Source of the DNA: Parcubacteria bacterium GBS-2
GTDB lineage: Bacteria > Patescibacteriota > Minisyncoccia > Minisyncoccales > GBS-2
Assembly: GCA_001443025.1 (NCBI GenBank)
Contig: LEKP01000002.1
Location: 28,429 to 92,428, forward strand
Direction of reading: 5' to 3'
Length of the DNA stretch: 64,000 bases
Shown here piece by piece: positions 614 through 58,050 of this stretch. The notes beneath the pieces are model-generated. The model was not told the DNA's origin, ran no database searches, and saw only the letters and a list, made by a program, of their open reading frames with translations. The first letter of the stretch is position 1. Each line of letters starts with the position of its first letter. Position numbers and translations under genes: made by a program.

Positions 614-1612
614 ATGAGGGGTAGAAAAGTAAGCTTGGAGGAGTGGGAGGAGAGAAAAGTAAGGCTACTAGAATATTTAAAGGAGAACCCGAGAGCTACC
701 AGCAAAGATGTCATCAAGGCAGGGCACGCAAGTGTTCTTTTGAAGGTTTACGGTGGAAGGATAAACGAAGCTAAGGCTGAGGCTGGTGTTCCAAGGGGAA
801 AGAAAAGAAAACTAACTCCCTCAGAATGGGAGGAAAGAAAGAGAAAACTGCTGGAATTTCTCCGTGAAAACCCCGAAGCCACTCGTAGAGAAGCCAGTAA
901 GGCAGGGCATACAGGTGTTCTCTGGAAGATTTACGGTGGAAGGATAAACGAAGCTAAGGCTGAGGCTGGTGTTCTAGTGGAAAGGAAACGAAAACTAACT
1001 TCTTCAGAAAAGGCGAAAGTGAAAATAAGAAAAAGACGCAGATGGGTGTTCAAAAAGGGAAAGAATGAAGTAAGAGAGATTATCACTGAAATATTGAAAA
1101 GATGGAAAATTGAAGAAGAGTATATTGAAGAAATTGCAGAGAGTGCTATAGCTCACTTCCAAAAAGTGAAAGAAGTACTACTCAAAGGAAGAGGGGTTAT
1201 AAAAGTCAGTGAAGTATGTTGCTACCTTGCTTGTCGCCAATTAGGAATACCAGTTCCTTCCAAACCTCCTCGCAAGATATACCTGCAAATCATTGCTGCA
1301 ACAGGTAGCATCATTCCAATTGGTCATCCAGAGAAATATGTACCAATTATCTGCGAAAGGCTGCTTCCCAAAACAGATGCAGAGAAAGTTGCTAAAAAAG
1401 CAACTGGTATCTTAAGTTCCTCAAAGATTTCATTTGTGGGAAAGTCAGAGAAAGTGCTTGCTGCTGCAGCCGTATATCTTGCCGCAAAGGAGCTAAAATA
1501 TCTAATAACTCAAGAGGAGGTAAGCAAAGCAGCTCATACTACTTCAGTCTCTTTGAGAAACACATTGAAAATGCTTAGAAAAACTAACGCACCTTCTTTG
1601 TGTTGTTATTAA
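614..1612 (+). CDS. TFIIB/TFB-like cyclin-core protein with tandem duplicated ~65-aa N-terminal module (no Zn-ribbon)
   Basis: C-terminal ~200 aa align with the archaeal TFB core: VSEVCCYLACRQLGIPV matches SVMAACVYAACRLLKVP, EKYVPIICERL matches TDYVNKFADEL, and GKSEKVLAAAAVYLAAKE...TQEEVSKAAHTTSVSLRNTLKML matches GKSPAGLVAAALYIASLL...TQREVAEVARVTEVTVRNRYKEL. The N-terminus has two near-identical repeats (EEWEERK..LLE.L.ENP.AT...KAGH..VL.K.YGGRINEAKAEAGV). Confidence 0.6.
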   Translation: MRGRKVSLEEWEERKVRLLEYLKENPRATSKDVIKAGHASVLLKVYGGRINEAKAEAGVPRGKKRKLTPSEWEERKRKLLEFLRENPEATRREASKAGHTGVLWKIYGGRINEAKAEAGVLVERKRKLTSSEKAKVKIRKRRRWVFKKGKNEVREIITEILKRWKIEEEYIEEIAESAIAHFQKVKEVLLKGRGVIKVSEVCCYLACRQLGIPVPSKPPRKIYLQIIAATGSIIPIGHPEKYVPIICERLLPKTDAEKVAKKATGILSSSKISFVGKSEKVLAAAAVYLAAKELKYLITQEEVSKAAHTTSVSLRNTLKMLRKTNAPSLCCY

Positions 1613-6998: not shown

Positions 6999-7715
6999 GT
7001 GAAATTTATGAGAAAGGATAGATTTTTTATCTCCACAAAGATTGGAAAAGGAGAATTGGAAATTTCAGATAAAAAAATTTTTTATCAATTGAAAAACGTT
7101 CTAAGAAAAAAAGTAGGCGATCGAATAATTCTATTTGATGGAACTGGAATTGAGGCTGAAGCTAAAATCAAAAAATTCTCAAAAGATAAAATAAAAGTTG
7201 AAATCTTAAAGATTGAAAGACCTGAAAGAGAACCAAAAATTTTTGTTTCTCTTTTTTGTTCGATTTTAAAGAAAGCAAATTTTGAATTAGTGGTTCAAAA
7301 GTCAACCGAAATTGGAGTAAAAGAGATAGTGCCAATGTTGTGTAAAAATACTGTTAAAACAGGGTTAAATTTTGAAAGATTAAGAAAAATTGCAAAAGAA
7401 GCTGCCGAACAATCAAAAAGAGTTACTTTACCAGAGATTAAAAAAATCTTAACCTTTAGAGAAGCTATTGAGAAAACAAAGGAGTTTGATTTGAAAATCT
7501 TATTTGATGCTTCAGGAAAAAATTTTTCTCTTCCCAAAAACAAGATTCAAAAAATTGCCATTTTCATTGGCCCAGAAGGAGGTTGGGATAAATCAGAAAT
7601 CGAATTGGCAAAAAAAGAAGGTTTTGAAATTTTGAATTTGGGAAAATTAAATTTAAGATCAGAAACTGCTGCAATTTGTGGTAGTTTTTGGGGAGTAAGT
7701 TTTTTGAGTCAGTAG
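6999..7715 (+). CDS. rsmE: 16S rRNA (uracil1498-N3)-methyltransferase
   Basis: RsmE family: ELVVQKSTEIGV, C-terminal GPEGGW...E, and a SPOUT knot; GTG start at 6999 (alternative ATG at 7008). Confidence 0.85.
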   Translation: MKFMRKDRFFISTKIGKGELEISDKKIFYQLKNVLRKKVGDRIILFDGTGIEAEAKIKKFSKDKIKVEILKIERPEREPKIFVSLFCSILKKANFELVVQKSTEIGVKEIVPMLCKNTVKTGLNFERLRKIAKEAAEQSKRVTLPEIKKILTFREAIEKTKEFDLKILFDASGKNFSLPKNKIQKIAIFIGPEGGWDKSEIELAKKEGFEILNLGKLNLRSETAAICGSFWGVSFLSQ

Positions 7716-11962: not shown

Positions 11963-12745
11963 TTAAATAAAAAGAAGATTTTCGAAAATTGAAATCAAAA
12001 GCTTTTCAAGATCTAATTCTTCTTTCTCTTTCCTTAACATTTCCTCCTCTAAATTTTCAAGTTTTATTATAGCTTTTACAAAATTTCCTTCAAGCTCTAT
12101 TTCTTTTACCAGATTTTTTTCATCAACCAATAATTTCCCAGAAATTCTTTCAAAGTTTTTAAAAAAGTTGTCAACATTTTCTTTTGAAATTTCCCTTCTC
12201 CATTCAAAAATTCTATCTTTTAATTTTTCTGTGTCAATTTCAAACTCGTAGCCTTTCTCAACTCTTTCAAATTTTCTAAAAACTCCATCTTTCTCTAGAA
12301 TTTCTTTTAATTTCTTTAATTCCTCAACCTCCTCATTTTTCACTTGAATCTTTTTCCGTCCAAAAAATAAATTTTGTAAAAATTGAAATGTTTTCAATGG
12401 AGGCTGAGAACTGATGATTGAATTAATTCTCCAATAAATATCGTTTCCATCAACAACTCCAGAAAGAGTGAAAGAAACGATTGTAGTAGTTTGAATGTTA
12501 ATCTGAGCAAAAATTCTCAATCCTTTTTCAGGTAATTCCACTTCAGGACTTGCTTTTTCCCTTATTTCTTTTAAGGGGCTTTCAACCTTTTCTCTTATTT
12601 CTTTAATCCATTCTTGGCTTTCTTTTTTAGGAAGAGATTGTTGGAAAGTAATTAAAACCAAATATAAGGCAAAAATGAAAAACCCAGCTCTTATCAAAAA
12701 ACCAATAATTTTTAAGAAAAATTCTCTCATTTTTCGATTCTCCAT
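11963..12745 (-). CDS. hypothetical membrane-anchored protein
   Basis: N-terminal TM helix then a charged coiled region; no recognisable motif. Confidence 0.4.
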   Translation of the reverse strand: MENRKMREFFLKIIGFLIRAGFFIFALYLVLITFQQSLPKKESQEWIKEIREKVESPLKEIREKASPEVELPEKGLRIFAQINIQTTTIVSFTLSGVVDGNDIYWRINSIISSQPPLKTFQFLQNLFFGRKKIQVKNEEVEELKKLKEILEKDGVFRKFERVEKGYEFEIDTEKLKDRIFEWRREISKENVDNFFKNFERISGKLLVDEKNLVKEIELEGNFVKAIIKLENLEEEMLRKEKEELDLEKLLISIFENLLFI

Positions 12746-13398: not shown

Positions 13399-13694
13399 AG
13401 TTTTTTTAAAATTTCTTGATAAAAATTCTTTGCTTTTTCTAATTCTTTTTCTCCCTTTTCGGTAATCTGATAAACCCTTCTTCTATTTTCTATTTTACTT
13501 TTCACAAACCCATCTTTTTCAAGTCGATAGAGAACTCTATAGGGCGTTATTTTTCCTGGTTTAAATCCAAAATTCTCATTAATTTTTTTTGGAATATCCC
13601 AGGCGTGAGTACTTTCTTTTTTTAAAATCAAAAGAATATAAATCCAAAGGTTTTCTATTGTATTCGATTTTTTTAATCTTTCAAAAGGAAGCAT
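13395..13694 (-). CDS. PadR-family transcriptional regulator
   Basis: 99 aa winged HTH: LWIYILLIL....YRVLYRLEKDGFV......RRVYQITEKGEKEL. Confidence 0.8.
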   Translation of the reverse strand: MLPFERLKKSNTIENLWIYILLILKKESTHAWDIPKKINENFGFKPGKITPYRVLYRLEKDGFVKSKIENRRRVYQITEKGEKELEKAKNFYQEILKKL

Positions 13695-13695
13695 C

Positions 13696-13723
13696 TTGAC
13701 AAAGTATTTTACGGGCGTAAAAT
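13696..13723 (+). promoter_or_regulatory. sigma70-like promoter for the inositol-phosphate synthase gene (TTGACA-16-TAAAAT)
   Basis: TTGACA at 13696-13701 and TAAAAT at 13718-13723, in a 60-nt divergent intergenic region abutting the padR start. Confidence 0.35.
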
Positions 13724-13756
13724 ATTAAGAAAGGTCGGAGAATAAATTTATAAAAT

Positions 13757-14860
13757 ATGTCAAAAGAAATAAGAATTGCCATAACAGGAGTAGGAAATTG
13801 TGCTTCAAGCCTTGTTCAAGGTTTATTTTATTACAAAAATGTCAAAGATGAAAGAGAGCTGGTTCCTGGGTTAATGCACAATGTTTTGGGTAGATATAAA
13901 ATTTCAGACATTAAAGTTGTTGCTGCTTTCGATATCGATGCAAGGAAAGTAGGGAAGGATGTTTCAGAAGCGATTTTTGCTCCTCCAAATTGCACTAAGA
14001 TTTTTTGTAAAAATGTGCCAAAAATTGGAGTTAAAGTGAAAATGGGACCTGTGTTAGATGGAGTGGCTCCTCATATGAAAGAATATCCAGAAGATAAAAC
14101 GTTCGTAATAGCAAAGAAAAAACCTGTTGATGTAGCAAAAGAATTAAAAAAAACCAGGGCAGAAATTTTAATTAATTATTTACCTGTTGGTTCCCAAAAG
14201 GCGGTAGAGTACTACGCAAACTGTGCATTGAAGGCAAGATGTGCTTTTATTAATTGTATGCCAGTTTTTATCGTTTCTAATAAAAAATGGGCAGAGAGAT
14301 TTGAAAAGAAAAAATTACCTTGCATTGGAGACGATATAAAAAGCCAAGTAGGAGCGACAATAGTTCATAGGACTTTATGTCACCTTTTTACCCAAAGAGG
14401 AGTTATAATCGATCGCTCTTATCAATTAAACTTTGGGGGGAACACAGATTTCCTTAATATGTTAGCTAGAGAAAGATTAAAATCAAAGAAAATTTCAAAA
14501 ACTGAAGCAGTGGAAGCAGAGCTTGCCAAAAGATTAAGTTACGATAATTTACATGTTGGACCTTCAGATTGGATTCCCTGGCTAAAAGATAACAAAATTT
14601 GTTACATCAGGATTGAAGGAAGAAAGTTTGGAAACGTACCAGTTGAACTTGAACTTAAACTTTCCGTTGAAGATTCGCCAAATTCTGCAGGATGTGTGAT
14701 AGACGCAATAAGGTTGGCAAAAATTGCTTTAGATAGAAAAATCGGGGGTCCATTAATTTCAGCCTCTGCTTATTTAATGAAGCATCCTCCGCAACAATTC
14801 ACTGATGAAAAAGCAAGAGAAATGGTCGAAGAATTTATAAAAGGTGAAAGAGAAAGGTAG
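13757..14860 (+). CDS. ino1: myo-inositol-1-phosphate synthase (Ino1 family)
   Basis: N-terminus IRIAITGVGNCASSLVQGLFYYKN is nearly identical to the mycobacterial/archaeal MIPS signature VRVAIVGVGNCASSLVQG; 367 aa. Confidence 0.85.
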   Translation: MSKEIRIAITGVGNCASSLVQGLFYYKNVKDERELVPGLMHNVLGRYKISDIKVVAAFDIDARKVGKDVSEAIFAPPNCTKIFCKNVPKIGVKVKMGPVLDGVAPHMKEYPEDKTFVIAKKKPVDVAKELKKTRAEILINYLPVGSQKAVEYYANCALKARCAFINCMPVFIVSNKKWAERFEKKKLPCIGDDIKSQVGATIVHRTLCHLFTQRGVIIDRSYQLNFGGNTDFLNMLARERLKSKKISKTEAVEAELAKRLSYDNLHVGPSDWIPWLKDNKICYIRIEGRKFGNVPVELELKLSVEDSPNSAGCVIDAIRLAKIALDRKIGGPLISASAYLMKHPPQQFTDEKAREMVEEFIKGERER

Positions 14861-15158: not shown

Positions 15159-15716
15159 TTATTCAAATTTTTCTACCGTGAATCGATAGATTAGAAACCT
15201 CTCATTTTGAGGATTGATTTTTGCTTTTTGACAAGCAATTAAAATTTGTTTTTCGATTGTATCAACGCCTTCTAAATCTGGAAGTAAAACCCCAGTTTTT
15301 GGAACAAAATGGCCATTAAAAATAACATCACCTGACGGAGAAATTGGTACCGTTTTTACAATTATTCCGTATTTTTTGGGATCGAGTTCTGAAATATCTT
15401 TTACCAATTCAGGCTCGCTTAAAATATACACAGTATAAGAAAGGTAGGGGAGTTCTTCTTTTTGAACTGGCCCGAATCTCCAATCTTCAGTAGCAGCAGC
15501 AATGGCGTTATAGATGACTTCTTCTGCAATATTTTGTCTAGTTGGTAAATAAGTTCCAATACAGCCTCGTAATTCCCCCTTTTTTTCAATAGTCACAAAC
15601 GCCCCCGCTCTTCTTTCTAAAAATTCTTTTGGTAAATTTTCAGGCAGAAAAAGGACTTTACCTTCTTTGACATATTTTTCGACTGCTAATTTTGCCAATA
15701 AAACTAAAGGGTGCAT
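15159..15716 (-). CDS. AMMECR1 domain protein
   Basis: GAFVTIEKKGELRGCIGT motif of AMMECR1. Confidence 0.85.
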   Translation of the reverse strand: MHPLVLLAKLAVEKYVKEGKVLFLPENLPKEFLERRAGAFVTIEKKGELRGCIGTYLPTRQNIAEEVIYNAIAAATEDWRFGPVQKEELPYLSYTVYILSEPELVKDISELDPKKYGIIVKTVPISPSGDVIFNGHFVPKTGVLLPDLEGVDTIEKQILIACQKAKINPQNERFLIYRFTVEKFE

Positions 15717-15790
15717 AATTTCATTTTAACCTCTAAAATCCAATAAAAAAAGCCAAAAATTTTTGGCGATTTGTGCTAAAAATTAACGGT

Positions 15791-17208
15791 TTAAAGTAAC
15801 CCAATGTCCTTTCTCCATCGTATTCCTTTGAAGTATATTTTTTCAATTTCTCTGTACGTTATTTCTCTTGCTTCCTGCAAGGTATTGCCTTCTCCTACTA
15901 CTGTTAGTACTCTTCCTCCACTTGTTCGGAGAAATCCCTCTTGATCAAATTCTGTCCCATTGTGATAAATTGCTGCTTTAATGTAACTCTTTATATTAAG
16001 ACTTCTGTGCCATTTTAATGACTCAGTCGATTTCTTACTTTTTATGTATATTGGTTGGTTTGTATAGTGCTTGTCATCTGGGTAACCTGGGTAGTATCCT
16101 TTTCGTCCTGTGCACGGTCCGCTTACAGCGCAAAGGCCAACTGTCCATTTTTTCGAGTACCATTCCATTGTTATTTGGTCTAATCTTTGTTCCACTAGCG
16201 CGCTGTAAATTTCTACAAGATCAGTCTTCAAACGTGGTAATCGAACCTAAGCTTCTGGATCACCGTCGCGCACGTTATCTCTAGTACTTTGGGTCTTTTT
16301 TGTCCGTTTTCATTCACCATCATTATGACGAAATGCATTATTCCTATGTACTCTTTTCGATAGGGGAAATTTTCGATCGTAGGGAAGACAATTTCTTTCA
16401 GAACTTTTTCTTTTACATTTTTCTCTAACGGATGGGGAGAAATTGTTCCCATTCCACCTGAGTTAGGGTTCATTCCTCTGAAAAAGCCATTGATTATTCT
16501 TTGAGTTTTTCTATCTCTTTCGTGTTCTTCGAATGCTTTCTTGTAATCTCTTGCTGTTCCAAAAAATTCTACGTGTTCCCCGTCAGTTAGTACGAAGAAA
16601 GAAATTTCCTCTCCTTCAAGCTTTTCTTCGATTTCGATTTTTCTTCCTGCATTGTTGTATCTTTGATTAAAATCTTCACTGAAAACTTTATCAATTGCCC
16701 AAAGAGTTTCTTCTAACGAACCGCAAACAAATGTTCCTTTCCCTTCAACTATTCCATCAGCTTTCACTACTCGCATTTTTGGATTTTCTTTCACGAATTC
16801 TTTTGCTTTCTCAGGATTCTTGAAAATTTCGTACTCGGGGATAGGTACCCCAATTTTCTTTAAGTAGTCTTTAGTCCAACATTTACTGGTTTCTAAAATT
16901 GCTGCTTTTTTTGAAGGAGCAATGATTTCTAACTTTTTCTTTCTAAACTCGTCAGTAATTCCTCTTGAAATTGACGCCTCCGGTCCTACAACTGTGAAAT
17001 CAACTTCCTCATCTTCTGCAATTTCTCTAAGTTCTTCGATTGCCCTTATTGAAGTGGATTTGATTCTTCTGCATTTTTTTATTAATTCGCTCCCTCCATT
17101 TCCTCTTGTCATTATCACTTCTCTCACTTGGTGGCTTTTGACCAAAGCTTCCGCGATTGCATTTTCTCTTCCGCCTGTTCCAACTACTAAAATTTTATAT
17201 TCCTTCAA
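15791..17208 (-). pseudogene. purD: phosphoribosylamine--glycine ligase (purD) disrupted by a 1-nt frameshift and an in-frame TAG
   Basis: Two ORFs (16228-17208, 15791-16231) together cover PurD. At the junction, frame 1 gives KVLEITCAT; the frame after a 1-nt slip gives NVRDGDPEA-TAG-VRLPRLKTDLVEI, which matches the conserved FNCRFGDPETQ..LRLKSDLVEL. The TAG sits where the conserved Gln is, consistent with CAG>TAG. TAG is used as a stop elsewhere (rsmE). Confidence 0.7.
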
Positions 17209-17334
17209 TTTTTTTCACCTCCTTTGAAGTTCTACTTTATTTTTTATCAATTTTATTGTTTTTTAGCAATATTTTCTATGCCGTCATTAAAGCTGTATAA
17301 ATAACAATGAGTTTTTAGTTCAAATTTATATTTT

Positions 17335-18084
17335 TTAAATTGGTAAATTAAAAAATTTTTTGACGTTTTCATCAGTGATTTTATTGATTTCATTGAAATC
17401 TAGCTTTTTTATTTTTGCAATCTCTCTCGCTATAATTTCTACACTTAAAGGATCGTTTCTTTTCCCTTCTCCTAACCAAGGGGAGTCTGTCTCAAGTAAT
17501 ATTTTTCCCAATGGCATATCTCTAACAATTTTCTTTATTTTTTTGCTTTTTAGCAAAGTTGTGTTTACTGAAATTGACCAACCATTTTTCATTACTCGTG
17601 GTAATAATTCCTTTGCAGTAAAAAAATGCATTAAAACATTTTTTTCTCCAAATTTTTCTAAAATTTCAATCGCTTCTAAAAATGCTTTTCTGGCGTGAAT
17701 TACCAATGGTTTTTTAAGATCTCTCGCTAATTGGATAAATTTTTTAAAAAGTTCCTTTTGTTTCTTCCTCCACTCAGCTTCTTCAATGATAAAATCCAAT
17801 CCTGTTTCTCCGATTCCAACTATTTTTTCTTTATTTTCCTCAATTTTTTTGAAAAATTCATCCACTTTTAAATGATCAATTTCTTTAATATATTCAGGAT
17901 GAATTGAAACTGTGGCAAAAACAAAATTTTTGTATTTTTCAACTAATTCCATCGTCAAATCAAAATCATCGGGATGGCAACAACAAGTAATCACTGCTTT
18001 TAATTTCTCTTTGCACTTTTCAATTACCTCATCCCTATCTTTTTCATAATCTTTTTGCTCTAAGTGACAATGCACATCAATCAT
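17335..18084 (-). CDS. tatD: TatD-family metal-dependent DNase/hydrolase
   Basis: MIDVHCHL start, HxH and conserved His/Glu/Asp positions of TatD; 249 aa. Confidence 0.85.
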   Translation of the reverse strand: MIDVHCHLEQKDYEKDRDEVIEKCKEKLKAVITCCCHPDDFDLTMELVEKYKNFVFATVSIHPEYIKEIDHLKVDEFFKKIEENKEKIVGIGETGLDFIIEEAEWRKKQKELFKKFIQLARDLKKPLVIHARKAFLEAIEILEKFGEKNVLMHFFTAKELLPRVMKNGWSISVNTTLLKSKKIKKIVRDMPLGKILLETDSPWLGEGKRNDPLSVEIIAREIAKIKKLDFNEINKITDENVKKFFNLPI

Positions 18085-18510
18085 TTTAATTTTTTAATTA
18101 TATTGACATTTTCACATCTCCGCAAATGTGCAAATGTCGAATTTTTGTTGGGAGATTTTTCTTTTAAAAGAAGTTAATTTTAGTTTTTAATCGAGAATTG
18201 GTTTTATCTGTAGATATCTTTTTGATGACCTACTTCAATTAACTTTATAACTTCAAGATGCAAAAAATTGAAAAATCAGTCGTCATTCGCGAGTAATTCT
18301 GAAAGAATAAAAACCAAAAAGTGGACCAGTTAATAGTATGTAAAAGAGAATGAAATGGATTCTTTTGAAGTAGTTCCAATTTTGTTGCTAATTTATTTTG
18401 AATTTTAGCTGGAAGTTTCTTAACTAATTTTAAAAAATTTTTGCTATAAATAATAAGTACTTCCAGTACTCCTTTTCTGATCCTTCAAAATTTGGACTTT
18501 TTTTCTAAAA

Positions 18511-18590
18511 TTTTCCAAATTTTCTCTCTAAGCTTTTGTTTTTCTTTAATTTTCCAAATTTTCTCTCTAAGCTTTTGTTTTTCTTTTTCA
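18511..18590. repeat. tandem direct repeat (2 x ~40 bp) in a 510-nt non-coding region
   Basis: ttttccaaattttctctctaagcttttgtttttctttaa occurs twice in tandem. Confidence 0.8.
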
Positions 18591-18597
18591 ATTAACA

Positions 18598-18894
18598 TTA
18601 TTTCAATGTTTCAATAATCTTTTTTATTCTTTCTGCCTCTTCTTTCACAATCTCGCTTTCGTATTCTCCTGCATGAGCTGGGGTTCTTTCATATTTTGGA
18701 GCTTTTTGGTCCAAATGCAAATTAAAAATTAAGTTTTCACCCTCGATCTTCAAAATCAAATGAAATCTTGGGAACCCTTTAGGTGGTCTGACAAATTTGA
18801 TTTCGTCTCCACGTTTTTCTTGAAAAAAATAACCCAATTTTCTACTTAAAGAATAAATATTTTCTTTTAATGGTCCTTTTATTACAAATTTCAT
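18598..18894 (-). CDS. hypothetical small protein, translationally coupled to polB
   Basis: 98 aa; 4-nt overlap with the polB stop; no recognisable motif. Confidence 0.45.
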   Translation of the reverse strand: MKFVIKGPLKENIYSLSRKLGYFFQEKRGDEIKFVRPPKGFPRFHLILKIEGENLIFNLHLDQKAPKYERTPAHAGEYESEIVKEEAERIKKIIETLK

Positions 18895-21290
18895 TTTATT
18901 AACTCAGACTCTGAAATTCCCAAAACTTGCAAAATTCTCATTGCTGCAGGTAAAATTTGATGACCAATGTAATAATCCAAATCTATCTTTTCTAATTTTG
19001 CAAATTCTACAGGCTGAGCCCTTTCAGAAATTGAACCCAAACCCTCTTCAATTACAAACATTATTACTTGTCCTTCTCCAACTTCGATTCCTCTTTCTTT
19101 CATTTTTTTGGCAGCTATTACATGGGGTGAAATTAATTTATATTGCTCAATTGGTTTTGTTAATTCCTCATAAATTATCAAATCCTTCAGTGAAACTTTC
19201 CTTTTTCTCAAATCGTTGATTACTTTTCTTACATACTCTTTCGCACCCTCAACATCTTTTTCTTTTAGTACAAATTCCAAAACTTTCCTTTGAATTTCTT
19301 TTGCCAAATTGCACCAATCTCTTCTTACTGTTTCCAATCCTCTAATCAATAAATTTCCTTTTTCATCAACTAAAGCGTATCTCTTTTTTGCAGTTCCGTA
19401 AGTTCCTCTTGGAATAAAAATTCCTCTTTCATAGAATCCTTGAAGTTCCAATTCCAAAATCCCTGGAAATTTTTGATTGATTTTTTTTAAAAATCCTTCA
19501 ACTTCTTTCTCAATTTCTTCTGATTTTTTCAAAAATAAAGAATCAGTATCAGCATAAATTACAGAAAATCCTTCTTTTTCAGCTTCTTTTATTGTTTCCT
19601 TTATCCAATATCTTCCAAATGCTGTACAGCTTTCTGCGCACTCTTTTGAATACCACTTTGAGGCAGGAAAACCAAAATATCCGTAAGTTGCATTAGCAAT
19701 GATTTTTAGAGCATATTGTCTGTTATCTAAAACTTTGTATTCGAAAGAATCTTTTGGAATAGTTTTCAATTTCTTTTTGAGTTCTGTTCTTTTCTGAATT
19801 ATTTCTTTTAAAACTGAAGGAACAAATCCTTCTCTCTTTTTGCAAAACCAATGATTCAATTCTGGAACCTTATGTCCATTGCCTTTACAACACTCACAAT
19901 TTAGAGTTTCTGGAGAAATGTTAAAAGAAACAATTAAGGAAGGATACAAAGATCTAAAATCCAAAACTGAAATTTTTTCGTGAATTCCTAAAACTGGTTC
20001 CTTTACAAACCCTCCAACATAAGTTTTCTTTCTTCTTTCTTGAATTTCTTCATATTTTGGCTGATTTGGAATAATTTCTCCTTTTTCTCCAGCTTTTCTT
20101 GACAAATACCATTCAACCAATTGCCCATAAGTCATTCTTGAAACATCAAAAAGAACTTGGCCTACGGTCCTTGAAATTTCAAAAATCTGTGGTAACAAAA
20201 CTTCACCCAACCTAAAAGTTAATTCTGAATCTTTCAAGCAATATTCTGCCAATTTTTCCAAATTCTTTCCTTTTCTCCAGCTTTCTAACAATTCTTGATA
20301 ATCCATTTCAATTTTTTTATCTCCTAAAATTTCCGTTGCCACTGAATCTAAAGTTAAAACTTCAGTTTGGAGGTTAGGGGAGAGGATGTTTTGGGTAAAG
20401 TTAAAAAGGTCAATGTGAACTATTCCGTTAAATCTTGCTGCTGAAATTTTAGCTCTTCTTGCAAACTTTGTCTCTTTCTTGTCCCTTGAAATTATTAATT
20501 TTATTTTGTTTTTCTCGCATCTTTGATCTAAAATTGGAAAGTCAAAAGAATCTCCATAATAAGTCAAGATGATGTCAGGATTTTCTTTTTGAAAAATTTC
20601 AACAATTCTTTCTAAAATTTTTCTTTCGTTTTCTAAAACCTCAACCCATTCTTTGTAATTTGATTTTTGGGAAGTTAAAACTTTTTTGAAGTTTTTTCCA
20701 AAAAAGGATGCCATTACGATTTCTTTTTCTCCCTTCTTTTCAACAGTTTCAATGTCAAAAGCCAAAATTTTTAATTCTGGAATTGAGATTTCTTCTAAAA
20801 CTTCAATCTTTTGACAATCTATTGCAAAATCGACATTATAATTTGTTTTAATTTCTTTTCCTTCAACATCAACCCAACAACATCCATTAATTCTTTTGTC
20901 GATTAAAAATTTTCTGTAAAAATTAATGGCGTATTCGAATTCATCGATTATTGAACCTTTTCCTCCTCTCTTTTCTTCTAAAACTTTAATGATATCTCTA
21001 ATGTTTTGAGTGTCTGCTGGCCTTTTGCAAACAATCTTTATAAAATCTCTTTCTTTGCCTGCCAATTTCATTTTCACTTTTTCAATTTTTTCAACTTGAA
21101 TTTTCTTTTCTGTTAAAAGTTTTTGAATATCAGAAATTGCTTCAGTTTTATTCTTTGGCAAAACAAAAAAATAGGGCTTTTCTTCAAAAAACAAAATCCC
21201 ATTTTGCCCTTTTTCATTCTTTCCCCAAAGCCTGATTTTCGTTTTCCCTTCCTCAACTATATAATCTGCATCCAAAATAAAGAATCTCAT
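18891..21290 (-). CDS. polB: family B DNA polymerase with intact 3'-5' exonuclease
   Basis: Exo I FDIET, Exo II YYGDSFDFP, Exo III YCLKDS; Pol motif A DFRSLYPSLI, motif B KIIANATYGYFG, motif C YADTDS; 799 aa. Confidence 0.92.
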   Translation of the reverse strand: MRFFILDADYIVEEGKTKIRLWGKNEKGQNGILFFEEKPYFFVLPKNKTEAISDIQKLLTEKKIQVEKIEKVKMKLAGKERDFIKIVCKRPADTQNIRDIIKVLEEKRGGKGSIIDEFEYAINFYRKFLIDKRINGCCWVDVEGKEIKTNYNVDFAIDCQKIEVLEEISIPELKILAFDIETVEKKGEKEIVMASFFGKNFKKVLTSQKSNYKEWVEVLENERKILERIVEIFQKENPDIILTYYGDSFDFPILDQRCEKNKIKLIISRDKKETKFARRAKISAARFNGIVHIDLFNFTQNILSPNLQTEVLTLDSVATEILGDKKIEMDYQELLESWRKGKNLEKLAEYCLKDSELTFRLGEVLLPQIFEISRTVGQVLFDVSRMTYGQLVEWYLSRKAGEKGEIIPNQPKYEEIQERRKKTYVGGFVKEPVLGIHEKISVLDFRSLYPSLIVSFNISPETLNCECCKGNGHKVPELNHWFCKKREGFVPSVLKEIIQKRTELKKKLKTIPKDSFEYKVLDNRQYALKIIANATYGYFGFPASKWYSKECAESCTAFGRYWIKETIKEAEKEGFSVIYADTDSLFLKKSEEIEKEVEGFLKKINQKFPGILELELQGFYERGIFIPRGTYGTAKKRYALVDEKGNLLIRGLETVRRDWCNLAKEIQRKVLEFVLKEKDVEGAKEYVRKVINDLRKRKVSLKDLIIYEELTKPIEQYKLISPHVIAAKKMKERGIEVGEGQVIMFVIEEGLGSISERAQPVEFAKLEKIDLDYYIGHQILPAAMRILQVLGISESELIK

Positions 21291-22015
21291 AATTTTTTGA
21301 GCTCTAAATCTCTTGCAGTTTTTATTTCTTTTGAGAAATTAGCGATCACAATTATTCTTTCTTTAGAATAAGCAGAAGAAGTAAATATAGTTAAACAGCG
21401 ATCATCGTACATCAATAAAGGAGCATTTGGATCATGGGAACGAATTAATATTTTTTTGTTTAGTTTTTCCATTATTTTTAAAAAATAATCTTTCCCAAAT
21501 TGAGGCCTACCAGTAAAAGGATCAATTCCAAAATTTTCTCCAGCTTCATCTATAAAATCTCCCCAACAAATTCTGAACCAATTTTCGTCACCAATTTTGA
21601 TTTTTTCAAAATCCTCCAATTTTTCAATTTCAGGTAAAGCACCATGAAGAGCGATAATGTTTTTTACAACAACTGCCAAAGGAAATTTTTCAACAAGTTG
21701 TGCATATTTTTGATATTCTTCATTTGTTAAGCTTTCCCAAAATTCAGCAGGAGAGAATTTTAAAATTCTATGTCCTTCATGATTCCCTTGTAAAAGAAAA
21801 ATCTGCTCTGGATATTTTTCTTTTTGTTCTAATAAAAAATCAAGATTTTCTTTTGAAAAAGGCCCTCTGTCAACATAATCTCCTAAAAAAACAATTTTGT
21901 TTCCTTCTTTTAGATAATTTCTAATAATTTTTTGTGATGCTTCTAAATCTCCGTGAGTATCTCCTACAAAAATTACTTTTTTTGCAGTTTTGATTTCAAT
22001 CAAATTTGGCATCAA
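21287..22015 (-). CDS. PPP-family (calcineurin-like) metallophosphoesterase
   Basis: GDTHGD, GDYVDRG, GNHE signature triad; 4-nt overlap with the polB start. Confidence 0.8.
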   Translation of the reverse strand: MMPNLIEIKTAKKVIFVGDTHGDLEASQKIIRNYLKEGNKIVFLGDYVDRGPFSKENLDFLLEQKEKYPEQIFLLQGNHEGHRILKFSPAEFWESLTNEEYQKYAQLVEKFPLAVVVKNIIALHGALPEIEKLEDFEKIKIGDENWFRICWGDFIDEAGENFGIDPFTGRPQFGKDYFLKIMEKLNKKILIRSHDPNAPLLMYDDRCLTIFTSSAYSKERIIVIANFSKEIKTARDLELKKL

Positions 22016-23367
22016 AGAACCGGTAAGTACTCTTTAATTTCATATGGACTAACTTCTTTTTGGTATTTTTTTCCTACTGACTTTTTGTACTTTTGCCATT
22101 CAATTTCTTTATTCTGAATTAATTTTTGAAAAATGTGATCTCCTAGAGTCTCTTTCATTAATTTGCTTTTCTTGAAAATTTCTAGGGCTTCTTTCAAATT
22201 TTTAGTCAGAGTTGCAATTTTTAATTTTTTCATTTCTTCTTTCGTCATTTTATAAATATTTCTCTCTTGTGGCGGGATCAACTTTAAGTTTTCTTTTATC
22301 CCTTGGACTCCAGCTGCCTGAATTGCTGCAAAAGCTAAATAAATGTTGCAGGCAGGATCTGGACTTCTTATTTCGATCCTTGTTGATCTTTCTTTTCCCT
22401 TTGGAACTTCTGGTACTCTAATGTAGGCTGATCTGTTTCTTGTTCCCCAAGCAAGGTAGACTGGTGCTTCAAAACCAGGAACCAATCTCTTATAAGAATT
22501 TACCCATTGATTCAAGACCAATTGAATCTCTCTTCCATACTTTATTAACCCCATCATGTATTTTTTTGCTATTTCAGAAAGTCCTCCTTTTTCAAAAAAC
22601 AGATTTTTTCCATTTTTCCACAAACTCAAATGCAAATGCATTCCAGTTCCAATCATTCCAGTAATTGGCTTTGGCATGAAGGAAACGTAAACTCCAGCAT
22701 TCCTTGCTACTCTTTTTAAAACGTATTTCGCAATCATTACTGAATCTGCAATAGAAAGGGCATTGTTAAATTTTAAATCAATCTCATGTTGGCTCGGTCC
22801 AACTTCATGATGGTCACAGTCTATTTCAATTCCCATTTGAGCCAAATAAATCTGTGCTAATTTTCTAATTTCACCCCATTTCCCTCCATGAAAATATCCT
22901 CCGTAGTCTAAAAGCTCTGGAGTTTTTTCATCTTTGAAAATATAAAACTCTAGCTCAGGTCCCACAAAGAGCTCCCCGTATTCTTTAGTTTTCTCTAAAA
23001 CTTTCTCTAAAATTCTCCTGGAATCGCCTGGAAATTCATTTCCTTTTGAATCAAAAATTTTTCCAAAAACTATCGCTTCTTTCCAAGAAACTCCCTCTAA
23101 TTGATAGTCCCATGGCAAAATTCTAAAGGTTTTTGGATCTAGGAAAAAATAAAGGTCAGATTCTTCGATCCTGGCAAATCCTTCGACTGAACTTCCATCA
23201 AATCCTTTTCCATTTTTGAAAGCAGATTCTAATTCTTCAGAGGGAATACAAAAGCTCATTTCTCTCCCCAAAACATCAGGAAAAATCATCCTCACAAATT
23301 TGACTTCTTTTCTTTCTTTTAAAACTTCGAGTACTTCTTTTTCATCTTTGAAACCAAAATTCTTCAT
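22012..23367 (-). CDS. glnA: glutamine synthetase type I
   Basis: GS beta-grasp and catalytic motifs (GFDGSSVEGF, ...GMHLHLSLW..., NPY/ADP-ribosylation-region-like tail); true start taken at internal Met (MKNFGFKDEK) overlapping the upstream RR stop (ATGA). Confidence 0.85.
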   Translation of the reverse strand: MKNFGFKDEKEVLEVLKERKEVKFVRMIFPDVLGREMSFCIPSEELESAFKNGKGFDGSSVEGFARIEESDLYFFLDPKTFRILPWDYQLEGVSWKEAIVFGKIFDSKGNEFPGDSRRILEKVLEKTKEYGELFVGPELEFYIFKDEKTPELLDYGGYFHGGKWGEIRKLAQIYLAQMGIEIDCDHHEVGPSQHEIDLKFNNALSIADSVMIAKYVLKRVARNAGVYVSFMPKPITGMIGTGMHLHLSLWKNGKNLFFEKGGLSEIAKKYMMGLIKYGREIQLVLNQWVNSYKRLVPGFEAPVYLAWGTRNRSAYIRVPEVPKGKERSTRIEIRSPDPACNIYLAFAAIQAAGVQGIKENLKLIPPQERNIYKMTKEEMKKLKIATLTKNLKEALEIFKKSKLMKETLGDHIFQKLIQNKEIEWQKYKKSVGKKYQKEVSPYEIKEYLPVL

Positions 23368-23741
23368 TTTAATAATTTTTCGATTTCCCTTACCACTTCG
23401 CTTGGAGTAAAATTTGCTTTGATCAAATAGGAAGTGACACCCAAAGAAAGAGCTTTTTTGACATCTTCCTTTTCTCCCAAATTTGACCAAACGATAATTT
23501 TCATTTTCTCAAGATCTTTTTTCTCTTCTTTCATTTTTTTTATTTCCTCTAAAATTTTCCACCCATCAATCCTTGGCAAAACAATATCTAAAAGCATCGA
23601 ATCAAACACTTTTTCTTTTAACAATTCAAGCGCTTTTTCCCCATTTTCTGCCACCTCAACTTCAAAACCAGAATTTTCTAATTTTGTCTGATAAATATCT
23701 ATTAAAAACGGGTCGTCTTCAACTAAAAGAATTTTTTTCAT
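23364..23741 (-). CDS. receiver-only response regulator (CheY-like), paralog 1
   Basis: ILLVEDD, D...LLDIVLP (phospho-Asp), conserved K; no output domain; 125 aa. Confidence 0.85.
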   Translation of the reverse strand: MKKILLVEDDPFLIDIYQTKLENSGFEVEVAENGEKALELLKEKVFDSMLLDIVLPRIDGWKILEEIKKMKEEKKDLEKMKIIVWSNLGEKEDVKKALSLGVTSYLIKANFTPSEVVREIEKLLK

Positions 23742-23742
23742 G

Positions 23743-24759
23743 TTATTTTAAAATTAAATTCAAATCCTCCCCACATTTTGGACATTTGCCATTTTTGTCA
23801 TAGCGATGGACAAAATAATTTACCCTATTTATCGCTAACGTTCCGCATTTTGGACAATAAGTATTTTCTGCTTTATGTCCTGGAATGTTTCCAATATAAA
23901 CATATTTTAAGCCAACTTTTCTTCCAATTTCGATTGCTTTCTCTAAAGTTTCAACAGGAGTATCTGGTATATGTTGCAATCTCCAAGAAATTGACCCACA
24001 AAATTGAGAAACGTGCCAAGGGGTTTCAGGTCCTAAATTTTCATAAATCCATTTTGCAATTTTTTCAAAAGTTTCCTCGTTATCATTTAAAGTTGGAATG
24101 ACCAGGGTTGTAATTTCCACCCAAACTCCTGATTTTTTCATCAATTTTGCAGTATTTAAAACTGGATCGAGCTTTCCGCCACAAATTTTTTGATAAAACT
24201 CATTCGAAAATCCTTTAATGTCAATGTTGTTCGCATCCAAGTAGGGAATTACCAATTTGGCAGATTCTTCTGACATGAAACCATTGGAAACAAAATTGTT
24301 TTTCAATCCTGCATTTTTTGCCAATTTCATTGTATCTAAGGCGTATTCTAAAAATATCGTTGGCTCTGTGTAAGTGTAAGAAATGCTTTCAACTTTATTT
24401 TCAATTGCCAATTCAACAATTCTTTCTGGCAAAACTATTTCACCTGGAATCTCTTTTGCTCCTTTGAAAGCTTGTGAAATTTCCCAATTTTGACAGTTCA
24501 AACAAGAAAAATTGCAACCTACAGTGGCAATTGAAAGAGAATGACTCCCCGGTAAAAAATGATAAAATGGTTTTTTTTCAATCGGGTCAATGTTTATTGC
24601 AATCGCTTTTCCATAATTTAAAGCATAAAGTTTTCCATCAATATTTTCTCTCACTCCGCATTTTCCTCTTTGAGTTGGAGCTAAAGTACAATAGTGAGAG
24701 CAAGTTCGGCACTGTACGTTTTTATTGGAAAGTTTTCTGTAAAGGTAAGCCTCTTTCAC
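23743..24759 (-). CDS. AmmeMemoRadiSam-system radical SAM enzyme
   Basis: CRTCSHYC N-terminal cluster, GCNFSCLNCQNW radical-SAM cluster, C-terminal CPKCG...CPKCG zinc ribbon; family partner of the AMMECR1 gene. Confidence 0.8.
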   Translation of the reverse strand: MKEAYLYRKLSNKNVQCRTCSHYCTLAPTQRGKCGVRENIDGKLYALNYGKAIAINIDPIEKKPFYHFLPGSHSLSIATVGCNFSCLNCQNWEISQAFKGAKEIPGEIVLPERIVELAIENKVESISYTYTEPTIFLEYALDTMKLAKNAGLKNNFVSNGFMSEESAKLVIPYLDANNIDIKGFSNEFYQKICGGKLDPVLNTAKLMKKSGVWVEITTLVIPTLNDNEETFEKIAKWIYENLGPETPWHVSQFCGSISWRLQHIPDTPVETLEKAIEIGRKVGLKYVYIGNIPGHKAENTYCPKCGTLAINRVNYFVHRYDKNGKCPKCGEDLNLILK

Positions 24760-24797
24760 ACTTTTATTTTAACTTATTTTTTGATAAACTCAAAAAA

Positions 24798-25373
24798 ATG
24801 CGAAGAAGAATTTTCATTGCCATAAATTTACCAGAAAAAATTAAGGAAGAATTGGTGTCTTTTCGAGAAAAATATTCAGAATTGCCAGCTCGATGGGTAA
24901 AACCTGAAAATTTGCATATTACCTTAGCTTTTTTAGGATACGTGAAAGATGAGGATATTCCAAAAATTATTGAAATTACAAAAAATGTCGCCTCAAAACA
25001 TAATCCCTTTTCAATAAAAATTGTCAAAATCACTTATGGTCCGCCGAAAGTTTCTCCTCCCAGGATGATCTGGGCGATTGGGGAAAAAAATGAAAGCTTG
25101 TGGAAGTTACAAGAAAATTTGAAAAATGCTTTAATGGAAATGAAAATTCCTCAATTGGAAGAAGAAGAGGGAAGAGGATTTATTCCTCATATTACCTTAG
25201 CCAGAATTAGAAAATTGGAATTCAGACAAATGGAACCTGAAGAAAGGCCAGAAATTGATGAAGATGTAAATTTTTCTTTTGAAGTAAAAAGTATTGAAAT
25301 AATGGAAAGCCATCTAAAAAGAGGAGGAGCAGAATATACTCTATTAGAAAGTTTTCCTTTGGCAAAATCATGA
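24798..25373 (+). CDS. thpR: RNA 2',3'-cyclic phosphodiesterase (2H family, LigT/ThpR)
   Basis: Two H-x-T/S-x motifs: HITLAFLG and HITLARI; start placed at MRRRIFIAIN (the ORF-track N-extension is antisense to the radical SAM gene). Confidence 0.85.
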   Translation: MRRRIFIAINLPEKIKEELVSFREKYSELPARWVKPENLHITLAFLGYVKDEDIPKIIEITKNVASKHNPFSIKIVKITYGPPKVSPPRMIWAIGEKNESLWKLQENLKNALMEMKIPQLEEEEGRGFIPHITLARIRKLEFRQMEPEERPEIDEDVNFSFEVKSIEIMESHLKRGGAEYTLLESFPLAKS

Positions 25374-49146: not shown

Positions 49147-50166
49147 TTACGTCTCTTTTTTTCTAACCTGAAGTTTTTTTCTAATTAAGAACGCAGTTAC
49201 AATTACGCTAACTATGATTAAAATTAAAACAATTGAAATTTGAATGATTTTCTTGGGGTGTAATTCTTTCTTGGGTCGAACTGTTTCTTTTTCTTTTATT
49301 TTTTCTGGATAGAAAGTAGCAATTGTTTCGTTTCCTGCTCTATCCACTGCTTTGACTTTTATTTCTTCATCCAAATTCTGATTTTCTAACAAATAAGGAC
49401 TTTTTGCTATTTTCCATTCTCTTTCTCCTTCTTTTACCATGTAATAATCAACTCCGGTTTCTTTATCAGTGGTATAAAAAACTATAAAATATTTTCCATC
49501 AAAAATGGCAGGATCTCTCTGAATTTGAATTTCAAAAGGTTCTGGGGGGGTAGTATCATTTAACAATTTTTCTCGCCACTCATTTAACCCTTTGCCAGAG
49601 GTGGGTAAAATTTTGATTTTTGAATCTTGAAGAGTAAGTCTTGCTAAAGTTCCTCTACCATCATTTAGAAAAACTTGAGAAGTGTTTAAAATTTTAATTT
49701 CTGCAATTTTTTCTTCAACTTCTCCTACTATCATTGAAGGTATAAAAAACCTAATTTCACCAATCACATTTGTCATCCCCGGATCTCCTGGAATTCTTCC
49801 ACAATAACCACCTGGAATTCCTCCAGAAAAAGAAATTTTTCCAGTTTCATTGATTTTTTTAGTATCTAAACTTGATGGTCTTTCAACCCAGATTGTAACG
49901 ATTGAATCTCCAAAATCTGCTCCTTCAAAGATTAAGGTATCATTTGGAAAACTTAAATCAACTGAAATTGTGTTAATACATTCTCCTTCCGGATCAATCC
50001 TGATTTTAATACCAAAATGATCCTTAAGACCGTATTCACCTTCTTTGGGATCTAAATATAAAACAGCACCAAAAATAAATGATGGTAAAACTGAAAACAA
50101 CAAACAAAAAGCCAAAATTTTTAATTTAAGGTGTGGAATTTGGAATTTGGAATTTGGAATTTTCAT
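49147..50166 (-). CDS. surface protein with N-terminal signal and C-terminal TM anchor; 5' heptanucleotide SSR
   Basis: Signal peptide, C-terminal IIQISIVLILIIVSVIVTAFLIRKK anchor; (AATTCCA)x4 in codons 2-10. Confidence 0.5.
   Translation of the reverse strand: MKIPNSKFQIPHLKLKILAFCLLFSVLPSFIFGAVLYLDPKEGEYGLKDHFGIKIRIDPEGECINTISVDLSFPNDTLIFEGADFGDSIVTIWVERPSSLDTKKINETGKISFSGGIPGGYCGRIPGDPGMTNVIGEIRFFIPSMIVGEVEEKIAEIKILNTSQVFLNDGRGTLARLTLQDSKIKILPTSGKGLNEWREKLLNDTTPPEPFEIQIQRDPAIFDGKYFIVFYTTDKETGVDYYMVKEGEREWKIAKSPYLLENQNLDEEIKVKAVDRAGNETIATFYPEKIKEKETVRPKKELHPKKIIQISIVLILIIVSVIVTAFLIRKKLQVRKKET
50134..50161. repeat. heptanucleotide SSR (TGGAATT)x4, minus-strand (AATTCCA)x4
   Basis: Perfect 4-unit tandem repeat directly after the start codon of the 49147-50166 gene. 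Confidence 0.85.
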
Positions 50167-50167
50167 T

Positions 50168-51208
50168 TTATCCTGTCCAATAATACATCATTATACTAAA
50201 ATCGACTAAATTCACTATTCCATCTTGGTTTTGGTCTGCACAAGGATTGTTAGTCCCCCAATAGTAAAGTAAAATTGAAAAGTCGATTAAATTTACTTTC
50301 CCATCTTGGTTTAAATCAGCACCAGGACAAATTCCAACTGGTGGCTTTTTCCCAACATAGAAAGTAACAAATCTGCTAAAACTGCTTACCACCGTTGCTC
50401 CTTCTATTATTGTTTTGAATTGGGATTTGGCTGTGTGCATTGATTCATCTTCTAAAGGAGAAGTATCAAAGAAAAGGTCCCATTCTCCTTTTTCTGTAGA
50501 AGTGGTTTCTTGGATTATTTCAGCTGGCGAGGCAATGTAAACTGGAACTTTAGCTTCTGGAATAGTTTGACCGAATATTTTTAGTATTTCCCCTCTTTTT
50601 ACAACATTTTTATCTACCCCAATAGTGGGTGGTAAATATGCTCCTCTAACAGTCGTCACAGCATTTGGCATTACTTCAAAGGTTAAAGTATATAAAATTG
50701 ATCTCAGTCCAAATTTATCATCTGCCCAAAAACTTAAGGTATTAATCCCTGGAGTAATATCTGTTGTTTGCCAGGAAAAATTTGCTTTTGAATCGGTTCT
50801 TACTCTGGCGATTTCCTTTCCATCTTTTAAAATTCTCACTTCAGTATCGGGATAGGCTTTCCCCAAAACAATTAAGGTAGTGGGTCCCAAAGGTCTCATT
50901 GCTCCTCCAGGATATCCCCCACCCCCTGCCCCCATTCCTCCAGGTTCTACATAACAGTGCTCAATGGAAATTCTAGTGCAATTATCAACACAGAGTAAAT
51001 ATCCTCGATTATATCCGTAAGTTGCGCAAGTTTTGCCCCCGAAATTGTCTCCGTCGCAAACTTCAAAACCATCGATTCTTCCATCACCACAAACTGAAAT
51101 TCCAACTATGGTAGGAACTTGTTTTTGAGCAAAGACTTTTAGAGAAAAAATTAAAAGAAAGGTTAAAATTAGAAAGAAAATTTTCAAAAATTCCTTCCAT
51201 AATTTCAT
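50168..51208 (-). CDS. secreted protein with Cys-rich repeat and C-terminal dockerin-like module
   Basis: CGDGRIDGFEVCDGDNFGGKTC (Myxococcus-type C-G-D-G...E.CD.GN repeat); C-terminal DLNQDGKVNLIDFSILLYYW and DQNQDGIVNLVDFSIMMYYW (two dockerin Ca-binding repeats). Confidence 0.6.
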   Translation of the reverse strand: MKLWKEFLKIFFLILTFLLIFSLKVFAQKQVPTIVGISVCGDGRIDGFEVCDGDNFGGKTCATYGYNRGYLLCVDNCTRISIEHCYVEPGGMGAGGGGYPGGAMRPLGPTTLIVLGKAYPDTEVRILKDGKEIARVRTDSKANFSWQTTDITPGINTLSFWADDKFGLRSILYTLTFEVMPNAVTTVRGAYLPPTIGVDKNVVKRGEILKIFGQTIPEAKVPVYIASPAEIIQETTSTEKGEWDLFFDTSPLEDESMHTAKSQFKTIIEGATVVSSFSRFVTFYVGKKPPVGICPGADLNQDGKVNLIDFSILLYYWGTNNPCADQNQDGIVNLVDFSIMMYYWTG

Positions 51209-51212
51209 AAAA

Positions 51213-52169: not shown

Positions 52170-52198
52170 TTCTGGTTAAAAATGATAAAAACTTTAGC

Positions 52199-58005: not shown

Positions 58006-58050
58006 TATTTCTATTTTACCACATTCTAAAAATCTTTTATAATCAATGTA

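Follow-up and report, generated by a model that had tools for sequence, protein, structure and literature searches.

A Probable Young Pseudogene of an Archaeal-Type purD in a Patescibacteria Population of Great Boiling Spring

Introduction

A 64,000-nt stretch of contig LEKP01000002.1 (assembly GCA_001443025.1, positions 28,429 to 92,428), referred to here at its full length as the window, carries on its minus strand (15791–17208) a complete purD gene for glycinamide ribonucleotide (GAR) synthetase that is cut into two open reading frames (ORFs) of 326 and 146 amino acids (aa). The locus raises the question whether the gene is truly disrupted, or whether an assembly error, a programmed recoding event or a selected split of the protein accounts for the two reading frames; and, if the disruption is genuine, whether purD is what remains of an ancestral purine pathway or a later arrival in this genome. 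The evidence assembled below indicates that the locus is very probably a real pseudogene of recent origin, derived from an archaeal-type purD that lies as a lone accessory gene in the slot between the genes for TatD and AMMECR1; the host is an uncultivated bacterium with a reduced genome from the Candidate Phyla Radiation (CPR) or Patescibacteria.

Two Lesions in a Conserved Loop

The 5′ fragment of the gene, ORF-N (17208→16228, minus strand, 326 aa), encodes GARS_N and most of the ATP-grasp domain GARS_A; the 3′ fragment, ORF-C (15791..16231, minus strand, 146 aa), encodes the end of the A domain and GARS_C. The break is formed by two lesions. A 1-nt deletion at 16275–16276 (minus strand), where the window has AA and two other alleles of this gene (L002 and L003, described below) have AAA, turns GAG ATA AAC GTG (E I N V) into GAG ATA ACG TGC (E I T C); the final 15 codons of ORF-N, from ~16274 downward, are out of the PurD frame, and its C-terminus reads ...KVLEITCATVIQKLRFDYHV-TGA. 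In the PurD frame, the codon for the conserved Gln of the GDPEAQ motif, part of the near-invariant EINVRDGDPEAQ motif, is TAG (16249–16247, minus strand), and CAG in L002. This second frame, with the sequence ...NVRDGDPEA-TAG-VRLPRLKTDLVEI..., extends as far as the natural C-terminus and its stop at 15791. The initial annotation of the locus, made from the sequence, had read the junction as EITCA in one frame followed by NVRDGDPEA-TAG and the remaining sequence in the other, which is accurate to the base. The E-x-N-x-R-x-G-D-P-E-(A/T)-(Q/E) loop is not contained in one continuous frame; the ORF-N frame reads E-I-T-C-A-T-V... at this position.

When one A is inserted at 16275–16276 and TAG is read as Gln, the repaired product is 472 aa long and shows the three-domain order N-A-C in its Pfam matches (GARS_N, 1e-27; GARS_A, 1.9e-49; GARS_C, 2.6e-16). 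Against the NCBIfam purD equivalog TIGR00877, the repaired protein scores 411 bits (cutoff 288) over profile positions 1–421 of 425; ORF-N alone scores 290 bits over positions 1–290 and ORF-C alone 76 bits over positions 304–421, so that the two ORFs do match PurD end to end, as had been proposed, and the profile gap between them consists of the junction motif only. The repaired protein also aligns with the solved PurD structures PDB 5vev, 2yw2, and 1gso through the junction (E-values 1e-67 to 1e-74), with "LEINVRDGDPEAQVRLPRL" placed against "IEFNCRFGDPETQ...".

Residue conservation was evaluated in a 15-sequence alignment of the repaired PurD and 14 of its closest homologs, in which E310, I311, N312, R314, D317, P318, A320, P325, R326, and L327 are invariant; at position 321, the site of the TAG codon, 11 of the 14 homologs have Q and three have E. 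The ortholog comparison that the initial annotation had proposed yields uninterrupted homologs that conserve the junction motif and carry Q or E at position 321. An uninterrupted ORF of ~420–480 aa would be expected for PurD, instead of the 326 plus 146 aa found in the window. All other family-invariant residues are kept in both halves; since no other conserved residue has decayed, the inactivation appears to be recent.

Within the active site of ATP-grasp enzymes, the E-x-N-x-R portion of the loop serves to bind Mg-ATP and to stabilize the acyl-phosphate intermediate. The window allele encodes an N-terminal fragment without the N-x-R-x-GDPE loop and, at best, a separate C-terminal fragment of 146 aa besides; by analogy with this enzyme class, active GAR synthetase would not be expected from either fragment.

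Alleles in Other Assemblies

The 326-aa and 146-aa products are present in a public protein collection from several sources, and the contigs that encode them were fetched from there. The window allele of purD, with both lesions, recurs in 12 other assemblies from different runs and assemblers (L001, L004–L011, L050, and L051 by name), with sources that include JGI 3300005298 and 3300000085, ENA ERZ650669, ERZ27289263, ERZ27289264, and ERZ27245891, and five Logan SRR runs. The gene is base-for-base identical to the window in nine of these (L001, L004–L009, L011, and L051); L010 matches up to its own contig end, and L050 differs by one base and a few N calls. The junction pattern matches the window and 11 fetched loci. 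The JGI samples, for which the origin was traced, are all from Great Boiling Spring (GBS), Nevada: 3300005298 is an in situ corn-stover enrichment (bioRxiv 10.1101/2022.12.01.518715), 3300020139 is "GBS70" (PMC6624737), and 3300000082, 3300000085, and 3300000106 carry GBS in their record names. Over the shared 3–12 kb, the contigs are 98–100% identical to the window, with differences bunched in short tracts; they represent one nearly clonal population, a replication that rules out error and says little on the age of the allele.

Two contigs from this population carry other alleles. In L002 (3300000082), the junction reads GAGATAAACGTGCGCGACGGTGATCCAGAAGCTCAGG, with AAA and CAG and thus neither lesion, and the 377-aa product reads ...KVLEINVRDGDPEAQVRLPRLKTDL... 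unbroken across the junction; this is the ancestral state predicted by the earlier explanation of the break as a 1-nt deletion in an A-run plus a CAG-to-TAG change at the conserved Gln. The L002 gene is ~98.5% identical to the window purD. An A7 homopolymer inside the window gene (codons K-K-A; 16906..16912, minus strand) is A8 in L002 (gene position 297), which truncates the N-terminal ORF of L002 at 108 aa; the A8 represents either another, independent frameshift or an error of the sequencing platform. All three indels of L002 relative to the window are +1 in homopolymers, and one of them, AAA, is confirmed by L003. The L003 allele (3300020139) has the TAG and an intact AAA; one base of GTGCGCG is gone (→ GTGGCG), 5 nt downstream. 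The population contains three different null alleles (window, L002 with its A8, and L003), and the most parsimonious order of mutations would be CAG to TAG first, followed by two independent deletions. The disabling lesions of the window gene are thus reproducible (12 other assemblies), and a close relative has the intact ancestral junction (L002, AAA and CAG), as a pseudogene should have it.

The purD substitutions between L002 and the window fall nearly all into two short tracts, 16058–16112 and 16446–16468. They comprise 11 synonymous and six non-synonymous changes, with a pN/pS of 0.14 from only 17, clustered, changes; the tracts probably reflect recombination from a more distant functional relative and not evolution after the disruption. 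An intact full-length close copy was not found among 5.8 billion clustered proteins, where no full-length copy exceeded 54% identity and the next match after the 326-aa cluster was 50% identical. Pattern scans of the metagenome_contigs collection for the junction in any allele gave no match; this collection evidently does not include these samples.

Run-length differences, common to several early Great Boiling Spring assemblies, are the main indel type in this population: T6 versus T7 at window position 1625 alters the C-terminus of CysS (462 versus 466 aa), A7 and A8 alternate between assemblies at position 490, and a further homopolymer-length difference is found at 15751. A 42-nt indel (18542–18583) lies in the intergenic region between the genes for a family-B DNA polymerase (PolB) and TatD, relative to L005, L006, and L007. 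Single-nucleotide polymorphisms in short tracts, for example at 13503–14008, 12107–12358, and 18007–18177, suggest recombination between strains.

Sequencing Error and Recoding

Homopolymer sequencing error and recoding, the two alternatives named in the initial annotation, did not hold up against these alleles. In the case of a sequencing or assembly error, purD would be intact in the true genome, and both the loss of the A and the T of the TAG codon would be artefacts; the frameshift does fall within a short A-run, and homopolymer-length differences do exist between assemblies (490, 1625, 15751, and 16906–16912). However, a run of two versus three bases is not error-prone, the TAG is a substitution and poses no homopolymer problem, and both lesions were recovered by different assemblers from different runs; since the identical allele is found in 12 other assemblies, error is excluded as an explanation to the point that its remaining probability is negligible. 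Equally negligible is the probability of programmed recoding, in which a -1 frameshift at GAGATAACG and read-through of TAG as Gln or pyrrolysine would produce full-length PurD. The position of both lesions within 30 nt, a repaired product that keeps every conserved residue, and the status of the window allele as the common one in the population would all suit such a mechanism; yet it would require two separate low-efficiency events, and the shift site GAG-ATA-ACG offers no X XXY YYZ slippery heptamer, while the surrounding 131 nt fold no better than shuffled sequences (z = -0.12). TAG terminates seven of the 57 long ORFs in the window (TAA 28, TGA 22), among them rsmE (6999–7715), where the initial annotation had correctly noted it as a bona fide stop; the window contains no tRNA(CUA), its sole tRNA being tRNA-Gln(UUG). 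The lesions are also not conserved, as L002 has neither and L003 shifts elsewhere, and the 119 homologs listed outside the gene's own cluster are uninterrupted without exception. Recoding is therefore excluded on the combined grounds of a lesion-free allele, TAG as an ordinary stop, and the absence of a slippery site and of a stimulatory RNA structure.

Clustered Deletions and a Possible Selected Split

The ORF finder opens ORF-C at an internal TTG, a Leu codon at 16231–16229, which overlaps the TGA stop of ORF-N at 16230–16228 (gTTTGAag). The +1 frame of the intact allele is closed by TAG and TAA directly ahead of the AAA run. ORF-N can reach the TGA overlapping the TTG of ORF-C only if a single nucleotide is lost from the final ~28 nt that precede the TAG of the PurD frame.

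This arrangement leads to the first of several points that weigh against a simple young pseudogene. The deletions of the window and of L003 are 5 nt apart and both inside that ~28-nt stretch, which is unexpected under neutral decay. Divergence is too low for relaxed selection to leave a measurable signature, as the disrupted copies are nearly identical and the sole divergence, that of L002, has a pN/pS of 0.14. If the A8 of L002 is a platform error, an intact allele could still circulate, and the gene would be polymorphic, not lost. The absence of purF, purN, purM, and the other pur genes applies to the ~84 kb scanned; and the probable horizontal origin of the gene, discussed below, is drawn from two sister genomes, the taxonomy of the homologs, and a modest difference in base composition.

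The clustering itself could be caused by chance, by a mutational hotspot (the gene is AT-rich but has a GC-rich patch, GTGCGCGAC, at this site), by an error in the single L003 contig, or by selection for translational coupling. If the split were functional or selected, frameshifts to the overlapping TGA/TTG would have been favored after the nonsense mutation; the gain could lie in termination-reinitiation of both halves (a two-piece PurD, or a new use of the fragments) or in less downstream polarity. Two independent 1-nt deletions (window and L003), separated by 5 nt and located in the only ~28-nt stretch that leads to the overlapping TGA, speak for this explanation, as does the lack of further decay in either half. 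On the other hand, both frameshifted products lose the invariant R-x-GDPE-A-Q, and that of the window also loses the Asn of E-x-N; since these loop residues are invariant in the family, GAR synthetase activity of the split products is implausible. In addition, the TTG of ORF-C lacks a suitably spaced Shine-Dalgarno sequence, the second deletion comes from a single contig, the missing decay is explained equally well by a recent origin, and the argument is a post hoc one. A selected split is thus improbable; its more specific form, in which deletions after the CAG-to-TAG change were selected twice to re-couple translation, so that the C-terminal half would still be translated or ribosome coverage of the mRNA maintained, would be slightly more improbable still. 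Polarity on AMMECR1 was considered separately as a selective reason for the clustered deletions and judged weak, given the terminator-like hairpin after purD.

Origin of the purD Gene

The probable young pseudogene differs in its affinities from what would be expected of a gene inherited within the CPR. The closest intact PurD homologs are 49–54% identical, and those with names belong to Aenigmatarchaeota, MSBL1, Hadarchaeota, Archaeoglobus, and Geoglobus; no bacterial or CPR-named PurD homolog above 45% identity was found in the protein database search, and a scan of the repaired PurD against the GTDB species genomes found no relative. In the window, purD occupies the interval 15717–17334 between the genes for TatD (17335..18084, minus strand) and AMMECR1 (15159..15716, minus strand), the conserved left and right borders of a variable slot. 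Two sister genomes, L012 and L014, with aa identities of 92% for PolB, ~80% for TatD, and ~84% for AMMECR1, both keep TatD and AMMECR1 and have other genes between them, an AP-endonuclease-2-family gene in L012 (19436–20240) and MazG plus a phosphodiesterase in L014 (19364–20680); neither genome showed any trace of purD. In the contig L004, the sequence upstream of TatD differs from that of the window and carries DUF3850 and NUDIX genes. The guanine-plus-cytosine (GC) content of purD is 37.5%, compared to 32.6% for the window and 29–35% for neighboring genes.

The genomic context of the gene offers no purine pathway. Other pur families were found neither in the 64-kb window nor within 10 kb past either of its ends (~84 kb scanned in total), which extends the earlier remark that the window ORFs include no other gene of purine biosynthesis; the partners of PurD in the pathway, purF upstream and purN or purT downstream, are likewise missing from these ~84 kb. 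CPR bacteria are commonly without nucleotide synthesis, and the remaining purine pathway is probably absent from the genome.

Could purD nevertheless be all that is left of an ancestral pathway for de novo purine synthesis, now being lost from this CPR lineage? The initial annotation had called the gene a decaying relic, a description that captures a genuinely disabled purD; the other part, a relic of an ancestral pathway, does not fit the archaeal homologs, the sister genomes without purD, and the elevated GC content. A vertical relic would agree with the lack of pur genes nearby, with the general scarcity of nucleotide synthesis in CPR bacteria, and with ongoing gene loss in the sister genomes, where GlnA is split (L014) or reduced to a 45-aa remnant (L012). 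Against it stand the same slot in two sister genomes, filled with unrelated genes in place of purD; nearest named homologs that are archaeal, with no bacterial or CPR-named one above the 45% identity level; the lack of a relative in the GTDB species genomes; and a GC content above the local background. Vertical descent is therefore unlikely, although not as improbable as a selected split. Since sister genomes lack purD, its nearest relatives are archaeal, and its GC content is above that of its surroundings, horizontal acquisition is indicated, and purD most likely represents an orphan gene, specific to this lineage and taken up horizontally into a flexible slot.

Glutamine synthetase, intact in the window (22012–23490), is distributed over three ORFs in L014 (6040–7392, 7431–8629 region) and down to the 45-aa remnant in L012 (9102–9236); the Orn/Arg decarboxylase of L014 is also split in two. 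These broken genes in the sister genomes reflect either ongoing gene loss or indel errors of long-read assembly.

Host and Genomic Neighborhood

The start codon of ORF-N is TTG (17208–17206), preceded at a distance of 7 nt by the Shine-Dalgarno sequence GGAGGTG (17216..17222, minus strand), as read from the sequence; a promoter-like site lies 5′ of purD as a consensus match. Directly 3′ of the purD stop, a terminator-like hairpin, GCCAAAAATTTTTGGC plus a T-run (15752..15767, minus strand), is a consensus match only; this hairpin suggests that purD might form a transcription unit of its own.

The window encodes MurC/D-type ligases, MraY, FtsW, MurG, a D-Ala-D-Ala carboxypeptidase, EF-P, L9, DnaX, and RsmE, as well as CTP synthase and several aminoacyl-tRNA synthetases, and DnaB, RecR, and L21 are encoded 5′ of it; based on the cell-wall, translation, and replication genes of the window, the host is bacterial. 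The nearest GTDB genomes, identified via the neighboring PolB, are metagenome-assembled genomes (MAGs) labelled "uncultured Candidatus Saccharibacteria" at 82–85% identity, on short contigs without the slot; these labels bear out the earlier view of the host as CPR-like. The observations fit a thermophilic lineage of the CPR/Patescibacteria in Great Boiling Spring.

Several other features of this genome are recorded here. The family-B DNA polymerase gene (18891–21290, minus strand), located in a bacterial (CPR) genome and 92% conserved in the sister genomes, has relatives in a few MAGs at 55–60%, some of them labelled archaeal, followed by DPANN lineages (Woesearchaeota, Pacearchaeota, and Nanoarchaeota) at ~35–38%. 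Two adjacent ORFs have Pfam matches to TFIIB repeats (cyclin fold), one in the window (614–1612, plus strand) and an upstream paralog in L045 (9017–9718); the former contains an internal tandem duplication of ~185 nt (641–826 versus 824–1009, 77% identity). Genes for large proteins, secreted or located at the surface, are clustered at 49147–53956 and 56542–63463 of the window and at 2502–8683 of L052, and their products have dockerin, cohesin, CBM3-like, Fn3, Big_13, and glycine-rich domains; this dockerin/cohesin cluster may represent a cellulosome-like surface system, in an organism that was recovered from a corn-stover enrichment. A Y1 transposase gene is located just past the window end. 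A radical-SAM ORF (23743–24759, minus strand) and an ORF for a LigT-like 2′,5′ RNA ligase (24474–25373, plus strand) lie on opposite strands and overlap by ~285 nt; since residue 118 is the first of the LigT domain, the true start is probably farther downstream.

Implications and Comparison with Known Systems

A young purD pseudogene at this locus could be reached in a short sequence of events. The gene would have been acquired horizontally; without purine pathway partners nearby, and probably with none in the genome, selection on it would have relaxed; a C-to-T change would then have turned the Gln codon of the E-x-N-x-R-x-G-D-P-E-A-Q catalytic-loop motif into TAG, and separate 1-nt deletions just upstream of the TAG would have followed in two sublineages. 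For annotation, the window purD should be called a pseudogene, neither merged into one ORF nor "fixed" as an assembly error; for metabolic reconstruction, it does not constitute evidence for purine synthesis in this CPR lineage. The locus offers a small, clean view of how genes come and go in a Patescibacteria population of a hot spring, with different cargo in the TatD–AMMECR1 slot of sister genomes, an archaeal-type enzyme gene that appears to have been taken up without its own pathway, and several purD null alleles, of which the three traceable to a sample all come from Great Boiling Spring. As a feature it is of an ordinary kind; it alters no general view and opens no long-standing question.

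The archaeal-type PurD proteins (P0003, P0004, P0018, P0026, and P0030; Aenigmatarchaeota, MSBL1, Hadarchaeota, and Archaeoglobus/Geoglobus) resemble the repaired window protein in their length of ~470 aa and their GARS_N/A/C domains, in the EINVRDGDPEAQxRLPRL motif, and in an extended C-domain segment (CAVSG...GYPG..HYT.QPI) that is lacking in the bacterial PDB structures. The archaeal-type genes are uninterrupted, whereas the window gene, at 49–54% identity to them, carries a frameshift and a nonsense codon, and the genome around it is bacterial (CPR), without a further pur gene in the ~84 kb examined. The bacterial PurD structures (PDB 5vev, 2yw2, and 1gso) are ATP-grasp GAR synthetases that align over nearly the full length, including the E-x-N-x-R-x-GDPE-x-Q loop; in contrast to these, the window gene is broken exactly in this loop and has the archaeal-type C-domain insertion, and activity should not be assumed. 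Genes with programmed frameshifts (prfB, dnaX) and genomes with recoded TAG resemble the window purD in that a conserved gene is interrupted by a frameshift and an in-frame stop; yet the window gene lacks a slippery site, a stimulatory structure, and any conservation of its lesions, and TAG is a normal stop in this genome.

Young pseudogenes are known in reduced or host-dependent bacterial genomes, such as those of obligate symbionts or of Mycobacterium leprae. The window purD resembles them in its few disabling point lesions within an otherwise perfectly conserved coding sequence, in the occurrence of several null alleles in one population, and in the fragmented metabolic genes of neighboring lineages (GlnA in L014). 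It differs from them in its apparent history, which is that of an orphan taken up horizontally into a flexible slot and not that of an ancestral core gene.

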